Source: Octopus vulgaris (lineage: Eukaryota). From it: 64,000 nucleotides of DNA. The position numbers and the translations under genes are program-made. The stretch covers positions 34,658,001 to 34,722,000 of the forward strand of contig OX597824.1 of the NCBI GenBank assembly GCA_951406725.2. Direction: 5' to 3'. The notes under the pieces were generated by a model, which was not told the origin of the DNA, searched no databases, and saw only the letters and a program-made list of their open reading frames with translations. Shown here one piece after another: positions 30,473 to 63,073 of this stretch (position 1 is its first letter; each line of letters opens with the position of its first letter).

Positions 30473-30908
30473 AAAGTTCCAGAGAACACTCAACAAAAAA
30501 GAAAAAATCCAGTTTTCTGCCAAGTCTGAAACACGACCAACCTGTTTTCCAGTCCCTTTCAACAGTTTGTTTCTTCATCTGCACTCACGCACGGAAGAAA
30601 AAAAAAAAAAAGAGAAGAAATTTTTTTCTCGATTAAAACGCGACGAAGGTTGGTAAAAACAAAAAAAAAGAAAAGAATTTTTTTCTATTCTCTGTGCACA
30701 CAGTACAAACAAAAAAAAACAAAAAAAAACCCCATTTTTTTTTGTAAATTGCACATTCAAAATTTATTGGTTCAATTGTTGGTCTTTCTTTCTTTCTTCC
30801 TTTCTTTTTTCCCTTTGTTTTTCCTTGTTGCGTCTGTTCAGCGTTGGTTCGTTGTCAGTTTTCTTTTTTCCATTTGACAGAGTCATCTAGTGAATAAAAG
30901 GCTACAAA

Positions 30909-31615
30909 ATGTTTATGGGTTCGTTACCTACTTTTACAGGTGATGCCACACTGTGGTTTTCACAGTTAGAGGCACAATTTCGTGCACAAAGTATTACTCC
31001 CGAGCAGCAGTTGGAAATCCTTTATGGTTGCATGCCGCCGCAACTGGCATCTTCAGCAAGGGACCTTATTACAGACCCTAGTCCAGGCGCTACTTATGCG
31101 TCTGTTAGATTAGAGGTTGAAAAAAGAAATACACGAAGCGAGGAAAGTCGTTTCAATGAGTTAATGGCAGATGAGCAACTAGGGGACAGAACTCCGTCAG
31201 AATTTTTACGAAGACTGAGGGAGTTAAGTGGTAATGCATCAGATGCCCCCCTCCTTCGGAAGATTTTTTTCTCGAGGTTGCCCGCCTATATACAGACCGT
31301 TTTGGCAACCGGCTTAGAGACAAATACAGTGGACCAAATAGCGACGATGGTTGAATTTGCCGTTCAACCATCGTCACGGTCTGCTTGTGCCTGTTCACAG
31401 ACCTCTTCGGCCTCAATTGAGGGGCTTTCTAAACTAATAGAAACCCTCACTAAAAGGATGGACGCGATGGTAAGCGATCTTCAAAATCGCGAAGTCGCAG
31501 TCGTTCATCCTCGAGATCAACACAGTCTAAGTCTGGCCTGTGTTGGTACCACTCCAAGTATGGAGAGAATGCACATAGGTGCACACAGCCATGCACTTAT
31601 AAGTCTTTAAACTAG
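30909..31615 (+). pseudogene. gag: Gag with a frameshift near 31490
   Basis: LWFSQLEAQF, LGDRTPSEFLRRLREL; alternate frame gives SRSRSRS..LCWYHSKYGENAHRCTQPC..SLN* (CHCC box). Confidence 0.88.
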
Positions 31616-34600
31616 ATTCGGAGAATTTGAGCACGTCAACTTCCTCCACAACATTTTCTGGTTATCGTGCATTCTTTGTTAAAGATCTAGTGTCGAAGAA
31701 AAACTTCATGGTAGACACTGGTTCTTGTTGCAGTATTTGGCCTCTGCGTTGCACAACTGACAGGTCAAAGCAATCTAACGTCATCTTGCACGCTATTGAC
31801 TCGTCACCAATAGCCACATTCGGTCAGATGTCGTTGCGCCTTGATATTGGTCTTCGACGAGACTTTCGATGGGTTTTTGTCATTGCCGACATTCCGCATC
31901 CTATTTTAGGTGCGGATTTTCTGGATAAATTTGATTTGTTGGTAGATGTCAGACGTCGGAGGTTGGTCGATAGTTCGACTACACTCTCCACGTCGACCGG
32001 AGAATCTACCAATTTAGCTCTTAGCCCGACATTTTTTGTCGGTACATCTGGAGATGTTTTTCACTCTCTTCTAGCTTCTTTTCCAGAGCTATATGATGTT
32101 ACCTTTAGGGTGGCTAAGCCATTGCATTCGACACGACACTTTATAACAACAACTGGACCTCCTGTTTTTTCACATCCAAGGCGTCTTGCACCTGATCGAC
32201 TTAAAACTGCTAGGGCTGAGTTTGAGCATATGCTCCAGCTCGGTCTGATACGCCCCTCCACCAGTCCATGGGCATCTCCCCTTCATTTAGTAAGAAAAGG
32301 GGATACAGATTTTCGCCCGGTGGGAGATTATCGGCGTCTAAATTCGGTGACGATTCCAGACAAATATCCCATAAGGATTTTAAACGATTTTTCGGCAAAT
32401 TTACATGGCTGAACTATTTTTTCAAAGGTTGACCTGATACGTGCCTACCATCAAATACCGGTCAACTCAGACGCTATTCCTAAAACAGCAATTACAACTC
32501 CTTTTGGCTGTTTCGAATTTTTATTTATGAGTTTTGGTTTGAGGAATGCCACTAGTACTTTCCAACGGTTTATAGATGAAGTTGTTCGCGGACTGGATTT
32601 TGTGTTCGCGTATGTCGATGACATTCTAATCGCAAGTGATACGCATGAAAATCATCTCCTGCACTTGTCTCAGCTTTTTCAGCGTCTTCGCGACTATGGT
32701 GTTCGCATTAATCCAGACAAGTGTGTTTTTGGGCAACCATCTCTTAATTTTCTCGGTCATTATATTGACTCGAGAGGAATCAAACCACTCTCATCCAAAG
32801 TCGATGCTATTCAGCGCATCGCACCACCTTCTTCTTTGCGTCAACTTCGCCATTTTTTAGGCATAGTAAATTTCTATAGACGTTTCATAGATCGGTGTGC
32901 GGACAAGTTGTTACCTTTAACACAAATGCTAAAGGGCAATTCCAAGAAGGACGCCCGTCTAACTCTTTCGGCTGAAGCACTGTCTGCCTTTGAGTTGGTT
33001 AAAAAGGAACTGGCTTCAGTCCCTATTTTGGCACATCCGGCTCCTAATGCTCCACTTACTTTATCTGTGGACGCATCAGAGCCTGCAATTGGCGCTGTTT
33101 TGCAGCACACCGTAGAGGGTGAAGTTAAACCTTTAGCTTTCTTTTCTTGTCAGCTAAAGCCAGCTGAACGCAGATATAGTACCTTTGATCGAGAGTTACT
33201 AGCGATCTATCTGTCAGTTCGGCATTTTCAACACCAGCTCGAGGGACGAGAGTTTGTGATTTATACTGATCACAAGCCCCTTACTTTTGCTTTATCTTCT
33301 AAAACGGATAAACTCTCTCCTCGTGCTTTCCGTCACCTGGACTATATTTCTCAATTTACAAGTGACATTAGGCATGTGCCAGGCAGTGAGAACGTCCCTG
33401 CAGATGCTCTCTCTAGACTCCCTGTCAATTCCATTTCCTCTCCTGCAGCAATTGATTTAACTGCTATTTCGCAGGATCAACCACCTTTAGAGGAGTTGGA
33501 TTTAACTTCGCCTAAGTTTATTAACTGTAAGTTTGACTACCTTCCGCTCCCTACAGCGGAAGGCTCTATTCTTTGTGACGTTTCTACCGGTTCACCTAGA
33601 CCATTAGTACCTGAGAAACATCAACGTTCCGTGTTTGATGCTCTTCATTCACTGTCACATCCAGGTATCTCTGCCACAGTAAAGCTTGTTACTGCTCGGT
33701 TCTTCTGGCCCAATATGCGACGATCAATTACCTCTTGGGCACGCTCTTGTTTGAGGTGCCAGAGTGCTAAAGTCCATAGACACGTTCGTGCTCCACTTGG
33801 AAAATTTTCCTCTCCTGAAGCCCGTTTTCGCCATATCCACCTTGATTTGGTTGGACCATGGCCTGTGAGTCGCGGGTTCTCATACATTTTAACTTGTATT
33901 GATCGTTTTTCACGCTGGCCGGAAGCTATTCCTATAGCAGACATTTCAGCTGAAACTGTTGCGAGGGCTTTCGTATCTAATTGGATTTCGAGGTATGGTG
34001 TACCGTACAGTTTAACCACAGATCGTGGTCGACAATTCGAGTCTGCATTGTTTCGTGAGTTATCACGAATCCTGGGGATGCATCATATACGCACCACAAG
34101 TTACCACCCCGCTTCTAATGGGATGGTGGAGCGTTTCCATAGGCAACTTAAGGCCGCTTTGCGTGCCTCGCCGAATCCACAGTCATGGACTGAATTTCTA
34201 CCGATCGTCCTGCTTGGATGTCGGACTGCGATTAAAGCAGACCTTGGTTTTTCGTCTGCCGAGCTCTTGTATGGTACCACACTGGCATTGCCTGTTGGTG
34301 CCAGACAAGTCACAGTCTCTTAATTTAGAGTCTTATGTTGCTCGATTACGCAGATATTTTTCTGCTCTTCCTCCTATGGACCCTCGACACCAAAATCCTC
34401 CTTCTAGTGTGCCATCAGACCTTAATTCTTGGACGCATGTTTTTATTCGTGATGATTCTGTCAAAGGACCTCTTGTTTCTCCTTATAAAGGACCTTTTCG
34501 TGTGATTTCTCGCACGCCGAAGGTATTCAAACTTGAAATTAACGGTCGTTCGGAGACCGTCTCCGTAGATCGTCTTAAAAGGGCATATTTTGAGGTGTCC

Positions 34601-34810
34601 ACATCTTTTAATGACCCCACTGCCACAACCATCGTTGAACCTTCACATGCACCTTTGACAACACCACTATTTACACATGCACCATTATCAACACCAACAT
34701 CGACAACACCACCTTCGTCGTCGCAGCCTGCCTCGAACAGACCTTATGTTACGAGGTCAGGCAGAACTGTTCACTGGCCGAAAAAACTTTCCAAAACTAT
34801 TTATATTTGA
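31606..34810 (+). pseudogene. pol: Pol (protease, RT, RNase H, integrase); in-frame TGA at 32410, frameshift near 34300
   Basis: FMVDTGS; SPWASPLHLV, DYRRLN, YVDD; DAS, ELLAI, TDHKPL; [26 protein letters not shown]; GPF motif. Confidence 0.95.
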
Positions 34811-35019: not shown

Positions 35020-35595
35020 TGTAGTCACCCTATACAACAGCGCGCGCGCGCAACGCCCTCTCGCGAATACACGAAGTCCGAAAGAGGGAATTTTGCTGAC
35101 GTGGCCTTAGCTGACGTGGCCTTGCTGACGTGGCCTTAGCAAGGGAGCGTGAACCTTAACAAAGAGGCAAGGGAGCGTAAAGGTTGACCATTAGCGTCCG
35201 ACAGACAGCGGCAGGCATTTCATTGAAGCAGACGTTTAATTCGCTCTCTCTCCGGTTTTGATAGCAGCAGTCTTTTGGCCGAAGACTTTTAACCTGAATT
35301 GTTGTAGTCAAATCATCTTCTTCACCCGGACGCCATTTTTGACCCGTTCTGTTTTTGGCGGCTGGACATTGTAAATATTACAATCGATTAACTTTCAGTC
35401 TTGCGCGCCCAGAACCAAGGACATCAGATATACCACTGATTTCTCACCGGTATAAAACAATAAAGTATATCTATTTTTTACGTCTGCGTTTTGTGTTTCT
35501 TTGACTGGTAGAGTCTGGATATAAAGGCAACGGAAAGTGATTGCACCAACTTGCACCCCAAAAGTGCAAGCGGAGATATTCACATATTCCTTACA
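35020..35595 (+). repeat. 3' LTR (TG...CA)
   Basis: TGTAGT...TTACA; contains three copies of GCTGACGTGGCCTT. Confidence 0.93.
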
Positions 35596-35607
35596 TATAT
35601 ATATATG

Positions 35608-36383
35608 CACTATTGTCTCAAATGACACAACACGAAATAGAAGACTCCGGGAACTAAGGGCAATTCTTCTCGAAAGACATTACCCGGCATCACTAGTAGA
35701 CAACGGAATAGAACGGGCCAAATCAATCAACATTCAAGACCTTCGAAAACCCAAACACATCCACAGTACAGTCAATAGCCTCCCTTATCTCTCAACACAC
35801 AACCCAAGGAATGCAGAAGCTTACACTATTATATACAACAACATTCCACAACTAAATCAAGACCCACGCCTGAAAAAAATACTGGCAGCTCATAAAACAA
35901 TAAAAAGTAAGAGACAACCTAAATCCCTAAAACCTCCTCACCAACGCAAAATTACACAACACAAACCCACCGCCCACCATCAAAAAATGTGGTCGCCCCA
36001 ACTGTAAGACCTGCATCCACCTCATTGAGGGATCGTCGTACAAGTTCCACTCGGGACACACATTCATCATAAAAAATAACTTCACGTGCGCATCAAAAAA
36101 TTTACTCTACGTCATAAGGTGTGAAGGATGCCACGAAGACTACATAGGGCAAACGAGCCTTACCCTCAGAGACAGAATGACAGTTCACCGACAACAACTG
36201 AGGGACCCCTCCACAAGACAGATACCACTAAGTGGACACTTAGACCTTTGTGCACACAATAAGTCCCCCAAATTCTTAGTCTTCCCACTATACCAATGCT
36301 CGGACAACACCACAGACCAAACACGAATAAATAAGGAAAGTAATCTTATTCAAAAATACAGACCACAACTAAACATACTCTAG
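35608..36383 (+). mobile_element. Penelope-like element 3' fragment (RT thumb + GIY-YIG endonuclease)
   Basis: RLRELRAILLERHYP, LPYLSTHNP, KCGRPNCKTC, FTCASKNLLYVIRCEGCHEDYIGQT, RMTVHR, LN terminus. Confidence 0.85.
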
Positions 36384-36534
36384 CATACCCCCTGGAAGCA
36401 CATCCAGAGCAAGCACACAGGGACGCGCGCACGCTCACAGCATATCGTGCGGGCGGGCACATGCGCGCATCGGCACGCATAGGACACACTAGCGGGCATT
36501 GACCGCACACATACGTGGCATGCACACGCATGCA

Positions 36535-36687
36535 TTATATATATGTAGGTGATGTATGTGTGTGAGTGTTGTGTGTGTGTGTGTGTGTGTGTGCACTGTG
36601 TGCGTGTGTGTGTATATGTGTGTGTGCGCGCGTTGTTTGTGTGTGTGTGTGTGCACGTGTGTATATATGTGTGTGTGTGTGTGTGCG

Positions 36688-36718
<31 letters not shown>

Positions 36719-37568
36719 CATTGTGTACGTGTGTATGTATTTACATATGTATCTGTTTTTATATATATATATATATGTGTGTGTGTGTTGTGTGTGTATA
36801 TGCATGGTATGTGTGTATATGTTAGTACTTTGTTTGTGTGTATGTGCGGCATGTAGAGATATATTTGAGTGTGTACGCTATAGGTTTGTAATTTGTGTGT
36901 GTGGGGGGTGGTGAATTTTTTATATATATATATGTGTGTGAAAAAATATATGTATGTGCATGTATGTATGTATGTATGTGTGTATATATATATATATGTG
37001 TATATATATGTGTGTGTGTGTATGTGTGTGTGTGTATATTTATTTGCATGTTTATGTGTGTATAAACATGTACATTATTTGCATGCGCATTGTGTATATG
37101 TATATTGTATGTATGTGTATTGTATATGTACGTGTACAATTAAGTGTATATATTTGTGTGTATGTGTGCACTGTATATATGTATATTGTAGGTGTGCTAT
37201 ATGTGCATGAATACATGTATATGCATTGCGTGTATATATATGTATGCATTGTGTGTGTATGTATGTTATGTGTGTGTGTGTGTATATATATATTATATGT
37301 ATGCGTATGTGTATGTGTATGCATTGTATGTATGTGTGTTGTGTGTATATGTGGTACATCTATGTATGTGTATGTAAACACTATTTATATGTATATGTGT
37401 ATATATGTATATGCATTGTCTATATATATATATATTATATGTATGTATTACGTATGTATATTGCATGCATATATTGTGTATGTATATTACTTACATGCTG
37501 TATGTGTGTATTGTATGTGTGTATATATATGCTAGGTGTATTTGTGTGATATTTATATTATGTATGTA

Positions 37569-37616
<48 letters not shown>

Positions 37617-37835
37617 GTGTGTGTATGTGTGTTATATATCTGTGTATGTTATATATAGATACATGTTATATTTGTGTGCTGTGTGTATATGTGATATATG
37701 TGGGTGCGTTGTGTGTGGGTGTGTGTGTTCTGTGTGTGTGTGTGTTGTTTGTATGTGGTGTGTGTTTGTATACTATGTGTGTGTGTGTGTGTGTTGTTGT
37801 GTGTGTGTGTGTTTGTGTGTATATATATGTGTGTG
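36535..37835. repeat. Compound (TG)n/(TA)n microsatellite
   Basis: Direct inspection. Confidence 0.95.
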
Positions 37836-38194
37836 ACAAACAGATGCTGTCTGACCAGCAGGCACGGACACATCTATTCACACCCGCATACTAACCTCCT
37901 GATAACCCCAAAATCATTCATGCATAAAGGGGAAGTATACACCACATTGGCTACTTCTTCTGTTCTCTCAGTTCAGCCTTTCTGCTAATACTGACAGGTC
38001 AGTAAAAACATACTTAAAATATTCTGAGATGTACAAAAAAGCCATTTTAATTTTTGCTGTCAAAACGCTGTATATATATACCAAAGATTGTATATATATA
38101 CATGTAATGTGACAATTTGCGACAACCAATAATTAACGCAACCAATTCCCAATAATATATTTGTTTTATCCTTTTCTGCCAAATTTTCCCAAAT

Positions 38195-38423
38195 AATGTG
38201 ACAATTATGTATAAAAAAACATTTTTGAATTCATAATATCCAATGTGACAATTATGTAAAAAACATTTTTGAATTCATAATATCCAATGTGACAATTATG
38301 TAAAAAACTTTTTTGAACCCATAATATCCAATGTGACAATTATGTAAAAAACTTTTTTGAATGCATAATATTCAATGTGACAATTATGTAAAAAACTTTT
38401 TTTGAACCCATATTATTCAATGT
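38195..38423. repeat. 44-bp tandem repeat, 5 copies
   Basis: AATGTGACAATTATGTAAAAAAC...CATAATATCC at 38195, 38242, 38286, 38330, 38374. Confidence 0.92.
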
Positions 38424-38557
38424 TTCCTTAAATGTAACTTTTGACAATCTTTTACCAAAGAGTGAAACCGGTTAAGTAAATAAACATCGTTTAAATTGCA
38501 TTTTCAAACCTTTTTTCTTATATAATCCCACTCGTGCGATACCCCACAACTCAACTT

Positions 38558-38631
<74 letters not shown>

Positions 38632-49110: not shown

Positions 49111-50339
49111 AGAGAGATAACACACATACATACACACACACGCATGGATGTATGTATGTATATATGTACATCTGTCCACTTCTTGCCATATTTTTATCCT
49201 TCACTTCCTACACACACACATTCTCTCTCTCACACACACACACGCACGCACACATACACACACACACCTTCTTAGCTTACAATTTCTTTCTTTCAACAAT
49301 TTACAACTGAAGTACGCTCGCCAATGAATACTACCAAAAGTTAGCGACAGATCTGTGTTTCCTTTTATCTTTTTTTGAGGATTGGTTTAAGCATTAATAA
49401 GAGAAAGTAGCAGAATGTGTGATGTTGAATTAGAGTTGCAGAAAGAGGATATGATAGTGGTATACACTTGCAAACAGAAAGTAGGAGAAAGTGTGGTAAT
49501 AGCAGGAGTAAAGCATTTAAAATGAGAGAGGCAAATCGTAAAATATTGAGTTTTCTCGAATTTTTGCTGAATTGGGGGTGAAATTGAAAAAAAAATTTAC
49601 ATGCTATGACCCAATCGAATCTACTTCGAAAAATCATAGGTAAATTCCAATTGAAGAAATTCTATATTGTAGAATTGTATTAAAAACAAACTATGTGGGA
49701 GGCACGGAAAATCTGCCTTTTATCATAAGAGATAAATGTATATATGCATATATATACTGTTTGTTGTTTACACACATGTCTTTGTCTTTTGTTGTTGTTT
49801 TTTTGTAAATTCTCACTATATATTACACGCTCACATGGTTGCACGAGTTTTATCCTGTCTCCACCTCCTTCGAACTTTTCTTGGACTATTCTGCCTGGAT
49901 TCTCCACCTGGACTTTCTCCTACACTCAGACTCCTATACTTTGGCTGCACCTCTTCTACCCATGGATTACACTGGACTCTTACTTTGATGAGAAATCGCT
50001 CCAATACACCAAGGCATTTGAACCTTTTGAACTTTTCTAAACATTTTTGTACTTTCTGATTTTTCCTATTGTCATTTCTCTCAATCTGCACTTGTTACCT
50101 TGCCTCTCTCTCCCTCCCTTTCCTTGTCCCTTTTGTCTTCTCTTCTCCCTTTCTTCCCCTTTCTCTTTGTTTCTTCCTTCTTCCTCCTTTCTTTGCTTGT
50201 TTTTATTTTTTCTCCTCCCACCTCCTATATTTTTTTCTCCCCACACCTTTTGAATTTTTCTTCCTCACATCTTTATTTGCCTTTCTCTCTCCCCCCTTTC
50301 CCCCCCTTTTTCTCCTTTCCTCTTCTCGTTTTTCAAACA

Positions 50340-52810
50340 TGCCCAATTACAAACCTTTCTTCCTCCATCTCCACCACTGCCTAAAGAAACACCTTTCTGC
50401 ACCTCCTTTCCACTGCTTTCAACCTTCTATTAACCTTTCCCTACTAATTAAAAAAAAAACATGCTTCTGTAGCCACCTTTCCTTTCTCAGTCACTGCCTC
50501 ATCCCTAAAGGTTTCCGCCTTCATTTCCACCATACTCTCTACTCTGCTTCAACCATCCTACCCTTACTTTGTACTACATCCTACCACCTTATGTGCACCT
50601 CCATTCGTTCTAATCTCTCCAAAATACACACCATCGACCGCCTTCTCCCTCTGTCTTTAACCATCTTCTTCTCCTCTCAGTCAACCTCCTGTGCTAACAC
50701 TACTTTGCATAATTCATTTAAATCATCTCTTTCATCAATTTCTCACTCACACTAAACAATGCAAGCTCCACTCCTCCATTCCATCACACCTGATGCCACT
50801 ACCCCAACTCCTCCTTTACCCCTCTCCCTCCCTGTTACAATCCCTCATCCTCACCAAACCTCCCGTCCCTTCCAACCCCTACTCACATACCCTCCTTCCC
50901 AACCTTCCACCCCACCCACTTCTGTCTCATCCACCCCTTCTCCACTTCAGTCTGTTGTTACCATTCTTTCAGATCTTCCCCTCTCTGAGGTGGAGCACTC
51001 CCTCCTCAGTAGGGGTCTGCGCTTCATCCCCCTCACTCCATCCAGCAACGAATTTTGGACTCATGCTGATATCCACAGCTTTGTGCACTTTTCCACGACA
51101 CACCACCTGCATCTAATGAGGAGGGCTGCTTCACCAGCCTGGACCGCCAACCATTCGAGTGGACGCCAGCTCCTGGCCAGTTCCAAGCAGTCAATCTTTT
51201 TGCGAGCCCCTGCCAGTATGCTGTGGACCAGTTTGACTTTTCCAAGCATCCCCAACATCTCCCCCCACTGCCTCTAACCTCATTGTCCACATCCCTTGTA
51301 CTCCCACAATTTACTTCCTCCTCCAAATCCACAAACCTAACAACCCTGGCCGCTCCATCATCTCCACCTGCAACTGCCCTGCCAAACTCATCTCCAGATA
51401 TCTTGACTGTGTCCTTGCCTTCCTAGAAGCTTCCCTCCATGACACCAGCCATGATCTTCGTTTGTTCAACTCTTTCCCCTTCCCTCCTAGCCCCTCTAAA
51501 CTTCTCTTCACTCTTGATATCAAGACTCTCTACATGGTGGTCCCTCACCACGAGGGGCTGCGTGCACTCCAACATTTCCTTGACCTTCGACTGAACCCCC
51601 AACCTGACACATCCACACTCCTTCCTCTGACCAAACTTGTCCTCTCACCTAACTGCTTCAGGTTCGTGGGTAATTTTTACCAGTAGGTCTTGGGAGTGGC
51701 CATGGGAATGAGAATGGGCCCCAACAATGTGAACCTGTTCGCTGGCTATGTTGAAGCCCAAATATTCTCAAGTTTTACTGGTTCCACTCCTGAACTATAC
51801 AGTCGTTATATTGACAACTGTATCAGTACGACCTTACTCTCCTGCGAACATCTAGACTCTTTCTTCTCTTTTGTCAAATCTTTCCCTCCTGCCCTCCGCT
51901 TCTCCTGCACAATTTCTGACACCTCAGTTACCTTTCTCAACATTTCAGTCAGCATTCATCACTCCACTCTCACCAACCCTATTCACTATAAACACACAGA
52001 CTCAGACTCATACCTCAACTTCTCCTCCTACCCTAAACACACCAAGCTCTCCATCCCCTATTCCCAATTCCTCCATCTACACAAGCTCTGCAGTGACAAC
52101 CATGACTTTGAGACTTAGTCTCAACTCATGGCTCGCCACTTCATTCTACGTGGATATACCTTCACTACTATCCACACTGCCTTTGCCAGAGCACGTTCTG
52201 TGGACCATGCATCTGCTCTCTCCACTGCACCCACTCTGCCATCACCTGTCTCCCATTTCCCTTCACCTACCACCCCACCATCCAACCTCTCCAATGCACC
52301 ATTCTCCAAGCCTTCCGGCAACTCCAGTCCGACCCCTCCACTTTGCACATCTTCCCTCACCAACCCTCCCCTCCTTCAAATGAGCCCACAACCTACGAGA
52401 CCTCTTGGTTCGCAGCTTCTTCCCTAGCCCAACCTCCTAACCCAGGTCGTTCCCCTGCTCCCACCCACACTGCTACACTTGCCCTCACCTCTCCAACACC
52501 ACCCTCCTCACAGGCACCCATCATTGACTCTATCATAGCACTAACTCCTCTCACCTGCACTTCTAGCAACTGTATCTCCTGCTCACTCTGACCTTCTCTA
52601 TACATCGGTCAAAGAAGACACTGCTTGGCTGACCGGTTTGCAGAACATCTCCGAGACATCCAACTTGGCAACAACACCCCGGTCTTGCATAATGTCTGCT
52701 CTACTGGTCACTCTTTACAACACCAGTCTGTGTTTGGATTGTCCTTGTACAGGGGCCATCAGGACTCCCGTCTTCACCTTAAGGAGGTATTATTCTTCTC
52801 ACTTCACTCC
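50340..52810 (+). mobile_element. Degenerate Penelope-like element (RT + GIY-YIG)
   Basis: LIPKGFRL, LLSRGLRFIP, LFTLDIKTLY, GVAMGMRMGP, RYIDNC, SIPYSQFL, CTSSN..YIGQ, DRFAEHLRDI. Confidence 0.88.
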
Positions 52811-53309
52811 TTTGCTGGTGCATTTATGTCCCCGTAACTTAGCATTTCAGCAAAAGGAACCGATTGAATAAGTACTAGGCTTACAAAGAATAAGCCCTAG
52901 AGTCAATTTGTTTGACTTAAAGGTGGTGCTCCAGCATGGCTGCAGTTGAATGACTGAAACAAGTAAAAGAATAAAAGAATATGCAAAACTTAATGGTATG
53001 AGATTTTCTTGTGCCCATATATGTTACTTTCATGAAACTAACACAAAATTATATGATTGCTGAAACTGTTAAAGTTAGCATCAAAATCTTGCTGAAATCA
53101 TACTGTAGTGTTTTTAAAGTGGAAGATCACAATGAGTAATTTTGTTCTAGATATGTCTAAATAAAAAATGGGATTGACATGAGCTTGATCTCTTATTATA
53201 AGTTAACTTCAATATGGATGACTCAAAACTAGTTTAAAACGACAACATTGAAATTAAATTCCCTAAGAATGAAATATTTTTTTTAAATCCCTCTCTTTTT
53301 CCTTTTCAG

Positions 53310-54535: not shown

Positions 54536-54958
54536 GTATATATATATATACAAATAAATGAAAGAATGGAGTTGAACGACGAATTAACAAAATTCCTTTA
54601 TTTTATTTTCGACATATATTTCGACGGCTGCATATTCCTAATTTCGAAGGAATAAGTTCCTTGTTTTTCCTGATGAGAAGGCGGCATAATGCACCCCTTA
54701 TTCCTTCGAATTTAGGAATATGCAGCCTTCGAAACATATGTCGAAAATAAAATAAAGTAATTTTGTTAATTCATCGTTCAACTCCATTCTTTCATTTATT
54801 TGTATTTAAAAAAACACACAAATTTCCACACTATAGCACGTGATTTCTGCCCTAGGCATGTAGCTTCAACCGTGTTTCTCTGACGTGAATTTGCTACCCA
54901 GGTATCGGTTAACCGAATTATCCATAATAAGATAATTCATTCAACTACTCAATTATTT

Positions 54959-56452: not shown

Positions 56453-59400
56453 GTTCTCACCATCTACACCGGATACGCTCTACTCCCTCCTCCTCCCCCC
56501 TTCCTACCCCTTCTCCTCATATGCTTTCACTGTGAAAAGACAAGCTGCTAGCGCCACAGCTCATCAACTGCCCACTGATCTTACGCTTCCTCCTGACACT
56601 GCCTCAATCCGACTATCTCCTTCCAGTCCCCTCCGTAATATCCTACGTTTTTATTTCTTACGAACCTACACCAACCCTTCCTGCCATCGTTCCTCCTTAC
56701 CCCAACCTTCCCCACTGGTGCTCCCCTATATTGACCGCACCCCCTCTACTATCTCTCCCTCTCTTTTCACTGGTAAAACCTTTCTCAGCTGGACCCCCCC
56801 CCAACTCAACTCTGGAATATCTGTATTTTTCCTCCTTAGTACGCTACCTAATTACGTTACTCAGTGACGATAACGAATGTCCACTGCTAACACCAGCTCC
56901 TGTCCACGGCGTGGACAGGTCGGAAGAGAGATCAAAAGAAAAATGCTACGAAAACTATCACCACCACAACAACCCTCCTCTTCTCAGGCGCTGAATTCCC
57001 CCCTCCCCCCACATCTCCTTCCCAGTTTTCAGAGTTGGCACTATCAATGTTGGTACATTGACAGGCAAGTCTAGTGAGATTGTAGAGATGCTAGAGAGAA
57101 GACAGGTTGATGTATGCTGCATACAAGAGGTAAGATGGAGAGGTGCTTCGGCTAGGGTCCTCACGGGCAAGGCACTTAGGTACAAACTCTTCTGGCAAGG
57201 TAACGTGGAAGGTGTAGGGGGTGTAGGCATTCTCCTTGCGGAGAAATGGGTGGATGAGGTCATAGAGGTTGTCAGGGTTTGCGATAGAGTGCTTAAGCTC
57301 AGGTTGGTCCTACAGAGTGGCACAGCTATGATTATCTCCGCCTATGCCCCACAAGCGGGACTACCAAATGATCAGAAGGACAACTTTTATGATAGCCTTC
57401 TGCAGGCTACTTCAAAGACTAGTAGCAAGGACCTCATCTTTGTAGGTGGAGACTTTAATGGGCATGTTGGGCGGGAATCGGGTATCTTCACTGGGGTACA
57501 TGGTGGCTATGGTATTGGCACCAGAAATGATGAGGGAACTAGACTGCTGGAATTCTGTGATGCATGTAACCTTTCAATCTGCAACACTAACTTCAAGAAG
57601 CCAGTCTGCCACCTTATAACTTATCAGTCAGGAGACTCCTCTAGCCAAATAGACTTCATCCTCACCAGACAGCGGGATGCAGGGTTGCTCTTGAATACAA
57701 AGACCCTCCCGGGTGAAGAATGTATCCCTCAGCATAGACTAATCATCAGTGACTTTAAGCTTGAGGCCAGAAGGACTCCAAGAAACAAACCAATCCAGAA
57801 AAGAAGGATTTGGAGGCTAAAGAACCCTTCACATGGTCAGAAATTTAGGGACATACTCATCAAGAAATTTGATGAGAGGGAGGAGGAGCTTCAGACGTCA
57901 GACATAGAAGGTAGCTGGGAATTCCTACGGGACAGCTTGCTGAGTGCCACAGACCGAGTCTGTGGATGGTGCAAAGTCCCTTCCAGACCTAGAATTACGT
58001 GGTGGTGGAATAGTGCAGTAGATAAAGCCATCTGTAAAAAGAGACGGGCCTGGAAAGCCTGGAAGGATGGGGGCAGCAGGGAACTGTACCAGATAGCCAA
58101 AAGGGAGGCTGGGCGGCAGGTATACATAGCCAAAGACGTAGCAGAAAAGAAGAAGTTTGCCAATGTCCAGCGACGCGAGGATCAAAGAGCTGAAGTATTT
58201 CGGATTGCCAGACAGTGTGTCAGAGAAAATAGTGATGTTATAGGAGAGAAATGTGTCCGCATGGATGATGGGGCACTTGCTTTTACTGCTAGTGAATAGA
58301 AAGAGGCTTGGAGAAGCCATTATGAAAGACTGCTGAATGAGGAGAATGAATGGGAGGAGGAGAGCCTGCCAAATGTTGACCCAGTAGAGGGACCAGCTAC
58401 CCGAATAGAGAGCTCCCTTGTAGATAAGGCAATTAAGGATATGAAACCAGGCAAAGCCCCTGGCCTATCAGGAATCACTGCTGAGATGCTTAAAACAGCT
58501 GGCTATGTGGGCTATACCATAGTCACCCGCATTGTAAACCAGGTAGTTCACAATGGAGTCATACCCAATGACTGGTGCAGCAGCACCATAGTCAACTGCT
58601 ACAAGGGTAAGGGTGATGCTCTAGATAGAAATAACTACAGAGGTATCAAACTGTTGGACCAGGTGATGAAGGTCTCAGAGAAGGTCATAACCCATCTCAT
58701 TAGGGAGAGAATTTGTTTAGATGAAATGCAGTTCGGTTTTGTACCAGGTAGAAGCACCACTGATGCTATATTCCTGGTCTGACAACTGCAGGAGAAGTAC
58801 CTAGCTAAAGATAAACCCCTCTACATAGCTTTTGTAGACTTGGAGAAAGCCTTTGACAGGGTTCCCCGTTCCCTCATCTGGTGGTCGATGCGGAAACTGG
58901 AGATTGAAGAATGGCTAATAAGGGCTGTACAGGCTCTATACAGAGAGGCTGTCAGCAAGGTTAGGATTGGCAACGAATATAGTGAAGAATTCCGGGTAGA
59001 AGTAGGTGTGCACCAGGGCTCAGCCCTCAGTCCCCTTTTATTCATCATAGTCCTTCAGGCAATAACAGAGGAATTCAAAACGGGATGCCCCTGGGAGCTC
59101 CTCTATGCCGATGACCTAGCTCTCATAGCAGAATCACTACTGGAACTAGAAGAGAAATTTCGGGTGTGGAAGCAAGGGTTGGAATCAAAGGGCCTTAGAA
59201 TAAATGTAGCAAAGACCAAAGTATTAGTAAGCAGCAAGAGGTACTCAGCACACACACCCTCGGGTAGGTGGCCCTGCTCAATCTGTAGGAAAGGTACAGG
59301 TAGAAACTCCATAAGATGCACCCAATGTAAGTTATGGACACATAAGAGGTGCAGCAACATTAAAGGGAAATTAACAGATAAGATAGCTTTCATGTGCGGC

Positions 59401-60421
59401 AGATGCACAGGGACAATAGACACAACAGACACTCAGAAAACAGATTCCATCACACTCCAGGGAGAGAAACTAGAAGTAGTTGATAGTTTCCGCTACCTGG
59501 GTGACCAAGTTAGTAGCGGAGGTGGATGCACAGAGAGTATCACCACTAGAATACGAATAGCCTGGGCAAAGTTCAGAAAGCTCCTACCCCTACTGGCAAC
59601 AAAAGGTCTCTCCCTCAGAGCGAAAGGTAGATTGTATGATGCATGTGTGCGAACTGCCATGCTTCACGGTAATGAAACATGGGCAGGGACTGCAGAGGAC
59701 ATGTGTAGACTTGAAAGAAATGAAGCTAGCATGATCCGCTGGATGTGTAGTGTCAGTGTGCACGCAAGACAGAGTGTAAGCATCCTAAGAGAAATGCTGG
59801 ATATAAGAAGCATCAGATGTGGTGTGCAAGAGCGACTTTTGCGATGGTATGGTCATGTGCTGCGGATGGATGAAGAGAGATGTGTGAAGAAGTGCCACTC
59901 CCAAACAGTTGAAGGTATCAGGGGGAGAGGTAGACCCAGGAAGACATGGGATGAGGTAGTCAAGCATGACCTCAGAGCATTGGGCCTCAGTGAGGCAATG
60001 GCGAAAGACCGAGATCTCTGGAGATATGCTGTGACTGCAAAGACCCGGGCTGCTTTCTGCAGCAATTCCACATACCCACTACCCATTCAAAGTACCCCAG
60101 ATCCCCAAAGTACCCCGGATCCCCAAAGTACCCCGGATCCCCAAAGTACCCCGGACCCAGTTGCCCCCGTGCCACTGGCACGTTAAAAGCTCGAACCGAT
60201 CGCGACCAATGCCGGACCCCCCCGGCCCCTGTGCAGGTGGCACGTAAAAAGCACCCAATCCACTCATGGAGTGGTTGGCGTTAGGAAGGGCATCCAGCCG
60301 TAGAAACTCTGCCAAATCAGACTGGAGCCTGGAGCGACCCCTGGCTTCCCAGACCCCGGTCGAACCGTCCAACCCGTGCTAGCGTGGAAAACGGACGTTA
60401 AACGATGATGATGATGATGAT
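56453..60421 (+). mobile_element. Near full-length RTE-clade LINE
   Basis: Single long APE-RT frame, 3' UTR and (GAT)n tail at 60404-60421; 5' boundary approximate. Confidence 0.93.
56877..60186 (+). pseudogene. RTE ORF (APE endonuclease, RT, Cys/His finger); frameshift in the C-run ~57000, stops at 58297 and 58780
   Basis: ORFs 57058, 58441 and 58840 share one frame; GTINVGTL, CIQEVRW, SAYAPQ, GDFNGH, QIDFIL, GVHQGSALSPLLF, LLYADD, RGRGRPRKTW. Confidence 0.93.
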
Positions 60422-60436
60422 GTATATATATATGTG

Positions 60437-60517
<81 letters not shown>

Positions 60518-60850
60518 GTATATATGTATATATATGTATATATATGTATATAAGTATATATATATATATGATTAATTAATAAGGGTGAGAGAATTAGATA
60601 CTAATTTAATAGTATATCTATTCAACACCAAGTGGCCTAGTGCTACGAGAAACCTGGATTATTATAATATTTTATAACATATTATAATATTTTTACAAAA
60701 TAAATATAAGAGAGTGGTCATTATATGGCTCACTCTAGCACCAGTTAATCCAAAGGTTTCAACCACGAAAATACATGTTTCCCATGAAAGTCAGTACGAT
60801 TGTTAGCTCACACGGACAGGGCAAATAAAAAATAACAAAAATACAGATTA

Positions 60851-60932
60851 TTTTGGGACAATTGTTTCGCTATTAATGAATTAAATGTAATTTTACTTAC
60901 AAAAAAATCCATTTGTAGCTCGTCAGCCAAAA
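60851..60932 (-). ncRNA. Hammerhead ribozyme (type I, minimal)
   Basis: Reverse complement of 62205-62286. Confidence 0.85.
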
Positions 60933-61385
60933 CTATCTGGATGAAATCCACTCAATCACACGCCAGATTTTACCATAACGATAAATACGCGTGTGGTTCA
61001 ATTGATTACATCCGACGTTATAATTCAAATGCCCCAACTAACAGCGCGCCAAACTCTCACGGAAAACAAATACAGCATTTAGAAATAAATGCAGCATAAT
61101 TATAATTAATTAATAAGGGTGAGAGAATTAGATACTAATTTAATAGTATATCTATTCAACACCAAGTGGCCTAGTGCTACGAGAAACCTGGATTATTATA
61201 ATATTTTATAACATATTATAATATTTTTACAAAATAAATATAAGAGAGTGGTCATTATATGGCTCACTCTAGCACCAGTTAATCCAAAAGGTTTCAACCA
61301 CGAAAATACATGTTTCCCATGAAAGTCAGTACGATTGTTAGCTCACACGGACAGGGCAAATAAAAAATAACAAAAATACAGATTA

Positions 61386-61468
61386 TTTTGGGACAATTGT
61401 TTCGCTATTAATGAATTAAATGTAATTTTACTTACAAAAAAAATCCATTTGTAGCTCGTCAGCCAAAA
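61386..61468 (-). ncRNA. Hammerhead ribozyme (type I, minimal)
   Basis: Reverse complement of 62740-62822. Confidence 0.85.
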
Positions 61469-62204
61469 CTATCTGGATGAAATCCACTCAATCACACGCC
61501 AGATTTTACCATAACGATAAATACGCGTGTGGTTCAATTGATTACATCCGACGTTATAATTCAAATGCCCCAACTAACAGCGCGCCAAACTCTCACGGAA
61601 AACAAATACAGCATTTAGAAATAAATGCAGCATAATTATAATTAATTAATAAGGGTGAGAGAATTAGATACTAATTTAATAGTATATCTATTCAACACCA
61701 AGTGGCCTAGTGCTACGAGAAACCTGGATTATTATAATATTTTATAACATATTATAATATTTTTACAAAATAAATATAAGAGAGTGGTCATTGAGCTAAC
61801 AATCGTACTGACTTTCATGGGAAACATGTATTTTCGTGGTTGAAACCTTTTGGATTAACTGGTGCTAGAGTGAGCCATATAATGACCACTCTCTTATATT
61901 TATTTTGTAAAAATATTATAATATGTTATAAAATATTATAATAATCCAGGTTTCTCGTAGCACTAGGCCACTTGGTGTTGAATAGATATACTATTAAATT
62001 AGTATCTAATTCTCTCACCCTTATTAATTAATCATAATTATGCTGCATTTATTTCTAAATGCTGTATTTGTTTTCCGTGAGAGTTTGGCGCGCTGTTAGT
62101 TGGGGCATTTGAATTATAACGTCGGATGTAATCAATTGAACCACACGCGTATTTATCGTTATGGTAAAATCTGGCGTGTGATTGAGTGGATTTCATCCAG
62201 ATAG

Positions 62205-62286
62205 TTTTGGCTGACGAGCTACAAATGGATTTTTTTGTAAGTAAAATTACATTTAATTCATTAATAGCGAAACAATTGTCCCAAAA
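62205..62286 (+). ncRNA. Hammerhead ribozyme (type I, minimal); predicted cleavage after C62280
   Basis: Stem I TTTTGG/CCAAAA; CTGACGA; stem II GCTA/TAGC; GAAAC; palindromic stem III ACAATTGT; GUC triplet. Confidence 0.87.
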
Positions 62287-62739
62287 TAATCTGTATTTTT
62301 GTTATTTTTTATTTGCCCTGTCCGTGTGAGCTAACAATCGTACTGACTTTCATGGGAAACATGTATTTTCGTGGTTGAAACCTTTTGGATTAACTGGTGC
62401 TAGAGTGAGCCATATAATGACCACTCTCTTATATTTATTTTGTAAAAATATTATAATATGTTATAAAATATTATAATAATCCAGGTTTCTCGTAGCACTA
62501 GGCCACTTGGTGTTGAATAGATATACTATTAAATTAGTATCTAATTCTCTCACCCTTATTAATTAATTATAATTATGCTGCATTTATTTCTAAATGCTGT
62601 ATTTGTTTTCCGTGAGAGTTTGGTGCGCTGTTAGTTGGGGCATTTGAATTATAACGTCGGATGTAATCAATTGAACCACACGCGTATTTATCGTTATGGT
62701 AAAATCTGGCGTGTGATTGAGTGGATTTCATCCAGATAG

Positions 62740-62822
62740 TTTTGGCTGACGAGCTACAAATGGATTTTTTTTGTAAGTAAAATTACATTTAATTCATTAA
62801 TAGCGAAACAATTGTCCCAAAA
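62740..62822 (+). ncRNA. Hammerhead ribozyme (type I, minimal); predicted cleavage after C62816
   Basis: Same architecture as 62205-62286. Confidence 0.87.
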
Positions 62823-63073
62823 TAATCTGTATTTTTGTTATTTTTTATTTGCCCTGTCCGTGTGAGCTAACAATCGTACTGACTTTCATGGGAAACATGT
62901 ATTTTCGTGGTTGAAACCTTTTGGATTAACTGGTGCTAGAGTGAGCCATATAATGACCACTCTCTTATATTTATTTTATATTATATATATATATATGTAT
63001 ATATATATATGTATATATATATGTATCTATATATATGTATATGTATATATATTTATGTATATATGTATATATC

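Follow-up and report, generated by a model that had tools for sequence, protein, structure and literature searches.

What is a repeat that carries a ribozyme motif and no gene, and how does it spread through an octopus genome? The question is raised by positions 60567 to 62977 of the Octopus vulgaris DNA analysed here, a stretch of 64,000 nucleotides that we call the window. The initial annotation had described ORF-less units of about 535 nt with four hammerheads, and their positions and spacings proved exact. Its single tandem array turned out to be two inverted arms joined 5' to 5' at 61792: the repeat is one insertion whose arms point outward from that base, both into a TA microsatellite. 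We number the unit so that q1 is the base after the GUC cut (window 62281). Arm B (60567 to 61792, minus strand) holds 2.3 units and runs from a 5' end at q136 to a 3' end at about q291; arm A (61792 to 62977, plus strand) holds 2.2 units and runs from q47 to q161. The two overlap by 1 nt at their head-to-head junction, and each 3' end passes into (TA)n, the (TA)n-rich target microsatellite occupying 60423 to 60566 on the left and 62978 to 63072 on the right. Only the outer end of arm B includes q162 to q291, a 130-nt "tail" (60567 to 60696, minus strand) that would be the interval between two start sites of reverse transcription. Measured from cut to cut, the units in the window are 536 and 535 nt long and differ by one substitution and one homopolymer indel. 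The reference unit, q1 to q536, is the 536-nt monomer at 62281 to 62816 (plus strand); with the unit read round, its longest stop-free frame is 69 aa, and its GC content is 32%. A LINE with endonuclease, RT and PHD-like domains lies at 56995 to 60186, and its 18-bp tandem repeat end is just left of the target microsatellite.

The hammerhead motif and its predicted fold

Each of the four hammerheads is a candidate type I ribozyme. Two lie on the plus strand, at 62205 to 62286 and 62740 to 62822, with predicted cuts after 62280 and 62816; the other two lie on the minus strand, at 61386 to 61468 and 60851 to 60932, with cuts predicted after 61392 and 60857. Judged from its sequence, the motif has the CUGANGA core, GAAA, NUH, helices I to III and compensatory change. 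The covariation comes from 24 aligned hammerheads of three families, across which all 6 pairs of stem I change on both sides and the core columns CTGA-GA, GAAAC and GT are invariant in every row; position 7 of the core varies (C, A, G or T), as the consensus allows. Slid structures score far lower than the aligned stems, in a comparison whose shuffle test is inflated by relatedness. The motif is not a product of chance, because an exact 22-nt half of it occurs 798 times in the genome and its reversed control not once.

The hammerhead had been called minimal. This is right for helix III, which is short and palindromic, and wrong for the rest, since stem II has a structured insert of 43-44 nt and stem I extends to about 12 bp. 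In the minimal hammerhead, according to PMC4209133, helix III is dispensable, helix I is short (4-5 bp) and an extra base stands before stem II, whereas here helix III has 2 bp and a palindromic loop, helix I has 6 bp extending to about 12, and there is no extra base. The long stem II insert may be the reason why no Rfam hammerhead family gave a match at E<=1 between 56000 and 64000, where the search returned only TA-repeat miRNA noise. At the 40 ribozyme positions the depletion of inherited variants is not significant (1 against 3.1 expected), and 16 loci have inherited T461C, a mismatch in stem I. One locus, L055 (G000:C3:179745300-179755200), is a mosaic array of 12.6 units that has lost G8 of the core in 5 of 12 units.

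The circular monomer is predicted to be highly self-paired (MFE -156 kcal/mol, z -8.8 against 60 dinucleotide shuffles), with a long helix between q49-79 (62329 to 62359, plus strand) and q326-356 (about 62606 to 62636). The same prediction sequesters the ribozyme core (P 0.97-1.0, with a cost of 5.4 kcal for freeing it): core GACGA would pair with UUGUC, a pairing expected to block catalysis. A dimer is predicted to free both cores through an 8-bp palindromic helix III, and the core-free dimer comes within 1 kcal of two blocked monomers. It is this modelled fold that speaks for the dimer cleavage proposed earlier. Predicted pairs are broken by a smaller share of the inherited variants (9/41) than of the single-unit changes (49/99, p=0.003), in a structure folded from one of the haplotypes.

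A dispersed family with two fixed ends

The genome-wide copy-number search that the initial annotation had suggested gives at least 814 insertions, dispersed over many contigs. This is the number of exact junctions between the q291 end and (TA)n, with 0 for the reversed control; like the 798 copies of the ribozyme half, it is a lower bound on family size. We studied 61 loci in detail: the 39 best-scoring, which are biased towards long and young arrays and include the window locus, and 23 more from contig 1, taken from among the first 100 exact matches listed, minus one that was dropped. Left out before counting were L047 (interrupted, with an assembly gap), a separate older copy in L092 and a sister-family match in L065. 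The recent amplification supposed at the outset is borne out by a rate of about 0.9 single-unit changes/kb.

Two-armed loci make up 44 of the 61, and every one of them combines an A end (q155-165) with a B end (q277-292); the combinations AA and BB were never seen. The other 17 have a single counted arm (11 B, 5 A and 1 odd). Three more closed two-armed loci, from a set of 12 extra loci, also pair A with B. Nearly all 3' ends in the 61 loci have TATATA within 20 nt (103/105), and arm junctions range from a 6-nt overlap to a 30-nt insert. Target duplications were called in 8 of the 44 two-armed loci, against a mean of 1.0 with shuffled partners; about 5 of the 8 are convincing, at 8-16 nt. Such duplications are visible only where the TA run is interrupted, because elsewhere pure (TA)n masks them. 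Arrays reach 12.7 units in one arm, with unit running into unit and closing on flanking DNA at both ends. No ORF was found inside any of the 61 insertions, which close on (TA)n at both ends and have no LTRs. Nothing about the family is more informative than its pair of fixed ends, 130 nt apart and one to each arm, which the initial annotation did not contain.

Two fixed ends, inverted arms and TA targets together indicate mobilisation of the type known from Penelope-like elements (PLEs). This had been proposed from the window sequence; we consider it well supported and very probable, with a presumed PLE enzyme. According to Craig et al. 2021 (10.1101/2021.04.23.441226) and Arkhipova et al. 2013 (PMC3846280), EN+ PLEs insert into microsatellites, with an inverted 5' copy and a tail that only one end carries; the anole PLE starts reverse transcription internally, at two sites that set the bounds of the tail (Frangieh et al. 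2024, PMC11167929). The octopus insertions carry these marks: an inverted 5'-truncated arm, a tail on one end and a microsatellite target. They also resemble EN+ PLEs in their head-to-head arms, in ends downstream of the hammerhead cut and in two apparent internal start sites. An ORF-bearing PLE family of the same genome combines its ends in the same way in all 4 of the loci where both were seen, and has a tail of about 45 nt. There are differences as well. Unlike EN+ PLEs, the octopus unit has no RT or GIY-YIG ORF; its tail is 130 nt long, against 30-40 bp in the published PLEs covered by these sources; and its ends are strictly one per arm (44/44), whereas the anole enzyme treated both strands alike in vitro (PMC11167929).

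Which PLE could act as helper? The remnants noted at 35608 and 50340 are indeed derived from PLEs, given a GIY-YIG match and 69% identity to a full ORF, but the helper role offered for them finds no support, since their families share no DNA with the unit. A wider search, with PLE families reached from the window remnants and from Pfam GIY-YIG, found no helper sharing sequence with the unit in 29 stretches from at least 6 PLE families, a part of the PLE diversity of this genome; the only matches were sister-family copies. Twelve loci with a B end and no exact ribozyme 22-mer proved to be short or subfamily copies. None of the insertions among the 61 loci and 12 extra loci continues into an ORF, 5 of the 12 being still inside unit sequence at the edge of the stretch examined. 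The linkage to an autonomous PLE ORF that had been envisaged was thus seen neither in the loci examined nor in the 29 PLE stretches compared, and the unit itself lacks the ORF with PLE RT and GIY-YIG of an autonomous PLE. The ORF is absent from all 61 insertions, as expected of the non-autonomous retrozyme originally suggested and not of the pLTR of an ORF-bearing element.

Several PLEs are of interest in their own right. The ORF-bearing family with the tail of about 45 nt has two ORFs, is very young and is present in many intact copies elsewhere, as well as in a truncated one in the window, at 35525 to 38572. It has an ORF1 of about 480 aa, an RT+GIY-YIG frame of 776 aa, a long TG-rich 3' region, 44-bp repeats and a degenerate hammerhead-like motif. 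At 50060 to 52871 there is a decayed PLE whose RT region is 69% identical to a family with open frames of 1100-1200 aa. In the hammerhead-like motifs of several PLE families (L170-L183) the first core box is altered, with TTGATAA or TTGACAA for CTGANGA.

Templates and transcripts

Comparisons of units tell us about the template of each insertion. The two arms of a locus differ by 1.40 subst/kb, against 12.64 with shuffled partners (39 loci; 0 of 2000 shuffles as low), and the less biased contig-1 set gives 1.32 against 12.88 subst/kb (14 loci). Hence, both arms derive from one source. Divergence is 2.0-2.7 subst/kb within arms and 8.6-19.3 between loci. In most loci all units of both arms share one whole haplotype: the 25 well-covered loci hold 13 haplotypes, and arrays of 8.4, 12.4 and 15.3 units are uniform. 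In ten loci every unit shares variants that no other sampled locus shows, in 5 of the ten across both arms; such variants are private within the sample, 61 loci out of at least 814, which is too small to establish true privacy. The simplest explanation for repeated bottlenecks of one unit, and for arrays that grow from them to as many as 12.7 units per arm, is the re-reading of one monomer. Furthermore, the cut site is crossed by 92 of 105 arms and shows no enrichment of 5' ends (4, with 4.1 expected), a result that rules out one-pass copying of a linear cut monomer.

Other loci are mosaics, with variants in some and not all of their units. There are 8 among the 61, of which 2 look like alignment edge effects, and they include 4 of the 7 arrays of at least 8 units. 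As a case in point, L083 repeats a four-unit block, and the unit orders of its two arms do not overlap; in L037 a single unit belongs to another haplotype. L079 appeared to have a variant segment, considered as the trace of a sister template, which proved to be a 75-nt copy of a nearby unrelated repeat. Mosaics could stem from multimer templates, template switching, later gene conversion or assembly error.

Is the unit transcribed? We used four runs from four studies, none recorded as RNA, whose RNA nature is our guess and which come from other individuals or organisms. Contigs of these probable RNA runs cover all 30 bins of the unit; such contigs cannot tell a circle from a tandem transcript. 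On the ribozyme strand, A>G changes outnumber T>C changes (12 vs 1, 20 vs 9 and 25 vs 3, with 3 vs 1 in the fourth run) among the contigs listed. Of the 22 A>G sites listed, 14 have no counterpart in 247-302 genomic copies of the unit. These patterns suggest edited transcripts of the ribozyme strand, in a comparison that runs between animals and over the unit alone. The A>G sites are not enriched in predicted pairs (8/16, against 93/154 of the A's), and no skipping joint that would reflect splicing from GTAAGT in stem II was found in the four runs. Types of inherited variant include A>G in 10 of 41 cases, against 3 of 99 single-unit changes (p=0.0003), and T>C in 7 of 41, with uncertain polarity. 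This provides a lead towards RNA editing being written into the genome; selection for G-U pairs could equally produce the A>G bias. We found no paper on retrozyme editing among literature titles and listings.

Competing explanations and related systems

We give about even chances to the reading that this young ORF-less hammerhead repeat is a non-LTR retrozyme, copied in trans by a Penelope-like RT from monomer RNA read round several times. Arrays would be transcribed on the ribozyme strand, as the RNA-like contigs hint. Neighbouring hammerheads would pair via the ACAAUUGU palindrome and release 535-nt monomers, to be ligated afterwards, the core of a lone monomer being self-blocked according to the predicted fold. 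A PLE protein would then nick both (TA)n strands about 14-16 nt apart, leaving the duplications seen. One strand would prime at q161 and the other at q291, by analogy with the anole PLE and in keeping with the end pairing. Each cDNA would run a variable number of rounds in rolling-circle fashion, and microhomology would join the two at junctions such as those observed. Several observations stand against this scheme. Mosaic arrays misfit a single monomer template, and neither the inherited T461C mismatch (16 loci) nor the loss of G8 in L055 (5/12 units) sits well with it. In vitro, the anole PLE used unprocessed RNA, had no need for hammerhead cleavage and showed no difference between strands in its start site (PMC11167929), and only 1 of 9 Xenopus retrozyme dimers was cleaved (10.64898/2026.07.22.740005). 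Against the proposed mobilisation by a PLE there is also the lack of a sequence-sharing helper among the 29 stretches compared.

The mosaic long arrays, the repeated block in L083 and the preference of the anole PLE for unprocessed RNA in vitro (PMC11167929) would suit an insertion, likewise driven by a PLE, from an uncut read-through multimer or multimer circle, with a slow or dispensable hammerhead and arrays that regrow and homogenise as DNA. It is just as compatible with arms that run seamlessly through the cut site. We regard this model as possible and rather doubtful: it needs one-unit bottlenecks and regrowth of both arms for 13 haplotypes in 25 loci and for uniform arrays of 12-15 units, the unit orders of the L083 arms do not overlap, and the upkeep of the hammerhead by compensatory change across families about 70% alike is left without explanation. 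Linear monomers cut by the hammerhead could instead be concatenated by an RT that, on reaching the 5' end of one monomer, jumps back to its 3' end or across to that of a sister monomer. This would account for the shuffled unit variants of L073 and L083, and both haplotype switches in L037 fall inside 92 nt spanning the cut; moreover, the L081 insertion starts exactly at q1. Such jumps are distinctly unlikely, however, when no indel occurs within q528-q8 in 267 unit segments reaching the cut (a count that sets apart L050, L065 and L079, with small anomalies near the cut), the cut site is not enriched in 5' ends, and the mosaics of L055 and L040 recombine inside units.

Could the units be pseudo-LTR multimers of an ORF-bearing PLE, and the loci its 5'-truncated copies? 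The ends, the inversion and the targets are as in PLEs, PLE diversity was sampled in part, and 5 of the 12 extra loci were still in the unit at the stretch edge. Still, arrays of up to 12.7 rounds close on flanking DNA at both ends throughout the 61 loci, the 29 stretches from at least 6 PLE families show no similarity, and a sister family about 70% alike keeps a 535-nt ORF-less unit, which makes this explanation very improbable. Least credible of all is a DNA-level minisatellite grown by unequal exchange, or an assembly artefact, with an incidental ribozyme motif. Part of the unit-level noise is of homopolymer type and may be sequencing error, but the fixed heterotypic ends already contradict this explanation, as do the spread over many contigs, the target duplications, the locus-specific haplotypes and the presence of the unit in public runs under three organism labels. 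Returning to the monomer model, we tentatively extend it to the view, which we think somewhat unlikely in this full form, that the loci record rolling-circle target-primed reverse transcription, in which one self-protected 535-nt circle is read by two PLE enzymes, each on one strand and from one of two start sites 130 nt apart, and A-to-I edits are written back into the genome. If this were true, RNA editing would help drive the evolution of an old cephalopod retrozyme lineage.

Among known systems, the unit appears to be an animal non-LTR retrozyme, with which it agrees in every feature testable here, cleavage and the circle being predictions. It has tandem units with a type I hammerhead, neither protein nor LTRs, dispersed copies, target duplications longer than 4 bp and a monomer predicted to be self-paired. 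It shares with these retrozymes (PMC7229834; 10.64898/2026.07.22.740005) the ORF-less tandem units with one type I hammerhead each and a short palindromic helix III, as well as low GC and PLEs in the same genome. Its length, at first thought unusual, lies inside the 51-972 bp spanned by retrozyme units (Li, Clavereau & Pollet 2026, 10.64898/2026.07.22.740005), although it exceeds the 170-400 nt of the invertebrate circles in Cervera & de la Pena 2020 (PMC7229834). In the octopus monomer the hammerhead is predicted to be blocked, whereas in most metazoan retrozyme circles, with mussel as the exception, it is predicted free. Among the features that the available portions of these descriptions give for animal non-LTR retrozymes, there are no two-armed inverted arrays with two fixed ends. 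A weak palindromic helix III and dimer-dependent activity, predicted in octopus, recall the satellite hammerheads of newt and axolotl, as presented in PMC7229834 and PMC4209133, which differ in lacking the long structured stem II and in forming 120,000 satellite copies in place of dispersed short arrays.

The re-reading of monomers was proposed in PMC4209133 and PMC7229834, and mobility of animal retrozymes through PLEs and circular RNA has been proposed since 2014, on the basis of co-occurrence and pLTR similarity. In the present family the insertion marks of PLEs can be seen on the retrozyme arrays themselves, and the copies, nearly identical, number in the hundreds. It allows sharp predictions (two start sites, one per strand; a self-blocking monomer core; uniform versus mosaic arrays) and makes the role of the hammerhead and the origin of the tandem and inverted structures of PLEs testable. 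We found no report of a cephalopod retrozyme in the literature, where the supplements of PMC7229834 and 10.64898/2026.07.22.740005 could hold one; one supplement file of PMC4209133 contains no cephalopod term.

The genome also holds two older ORF-less sister families, one of them collinear, with about 70% identity and a 535-nt unit. The two-armed sister copies looked at, in L095 and L119, have the same pair of ends. The two sister families, seen at L121:1299-1833, L065:6800-7330 and L119:121-1135, number 3714 and 2356 first-look candidates; at the cut site they have GUU or GUA, and their stem II has U-U at its base. A second, unrelated two-armed (TA)n insertion at 54550 to 54955 of the window has its own type I hammerhead motif (54664 to 54748, plus strand) and ends about 147 nt apart. 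Its hammerhead family numbers 3273 first-look candidates, and 3 of the 3 copies examined are truncated, with no ORF. The stretch from 54660 to 54955 is repeated on its own contig at distances of about 86 and 94 kb, in 99-100% copies (G000:C11:34626451, 34712660, 34806886), and the frame at 51687 also has a copy 94 kb away; the retrozyme insertion is not listed at these offsets. The distant copies suggest a recent large tandem duplication or assembly redundancy. Elsewhere in the window, gag-pol frames with few breaks, which from their motifs we take to be Ty3/Gypsy-like, occupy 30894 to 34810.
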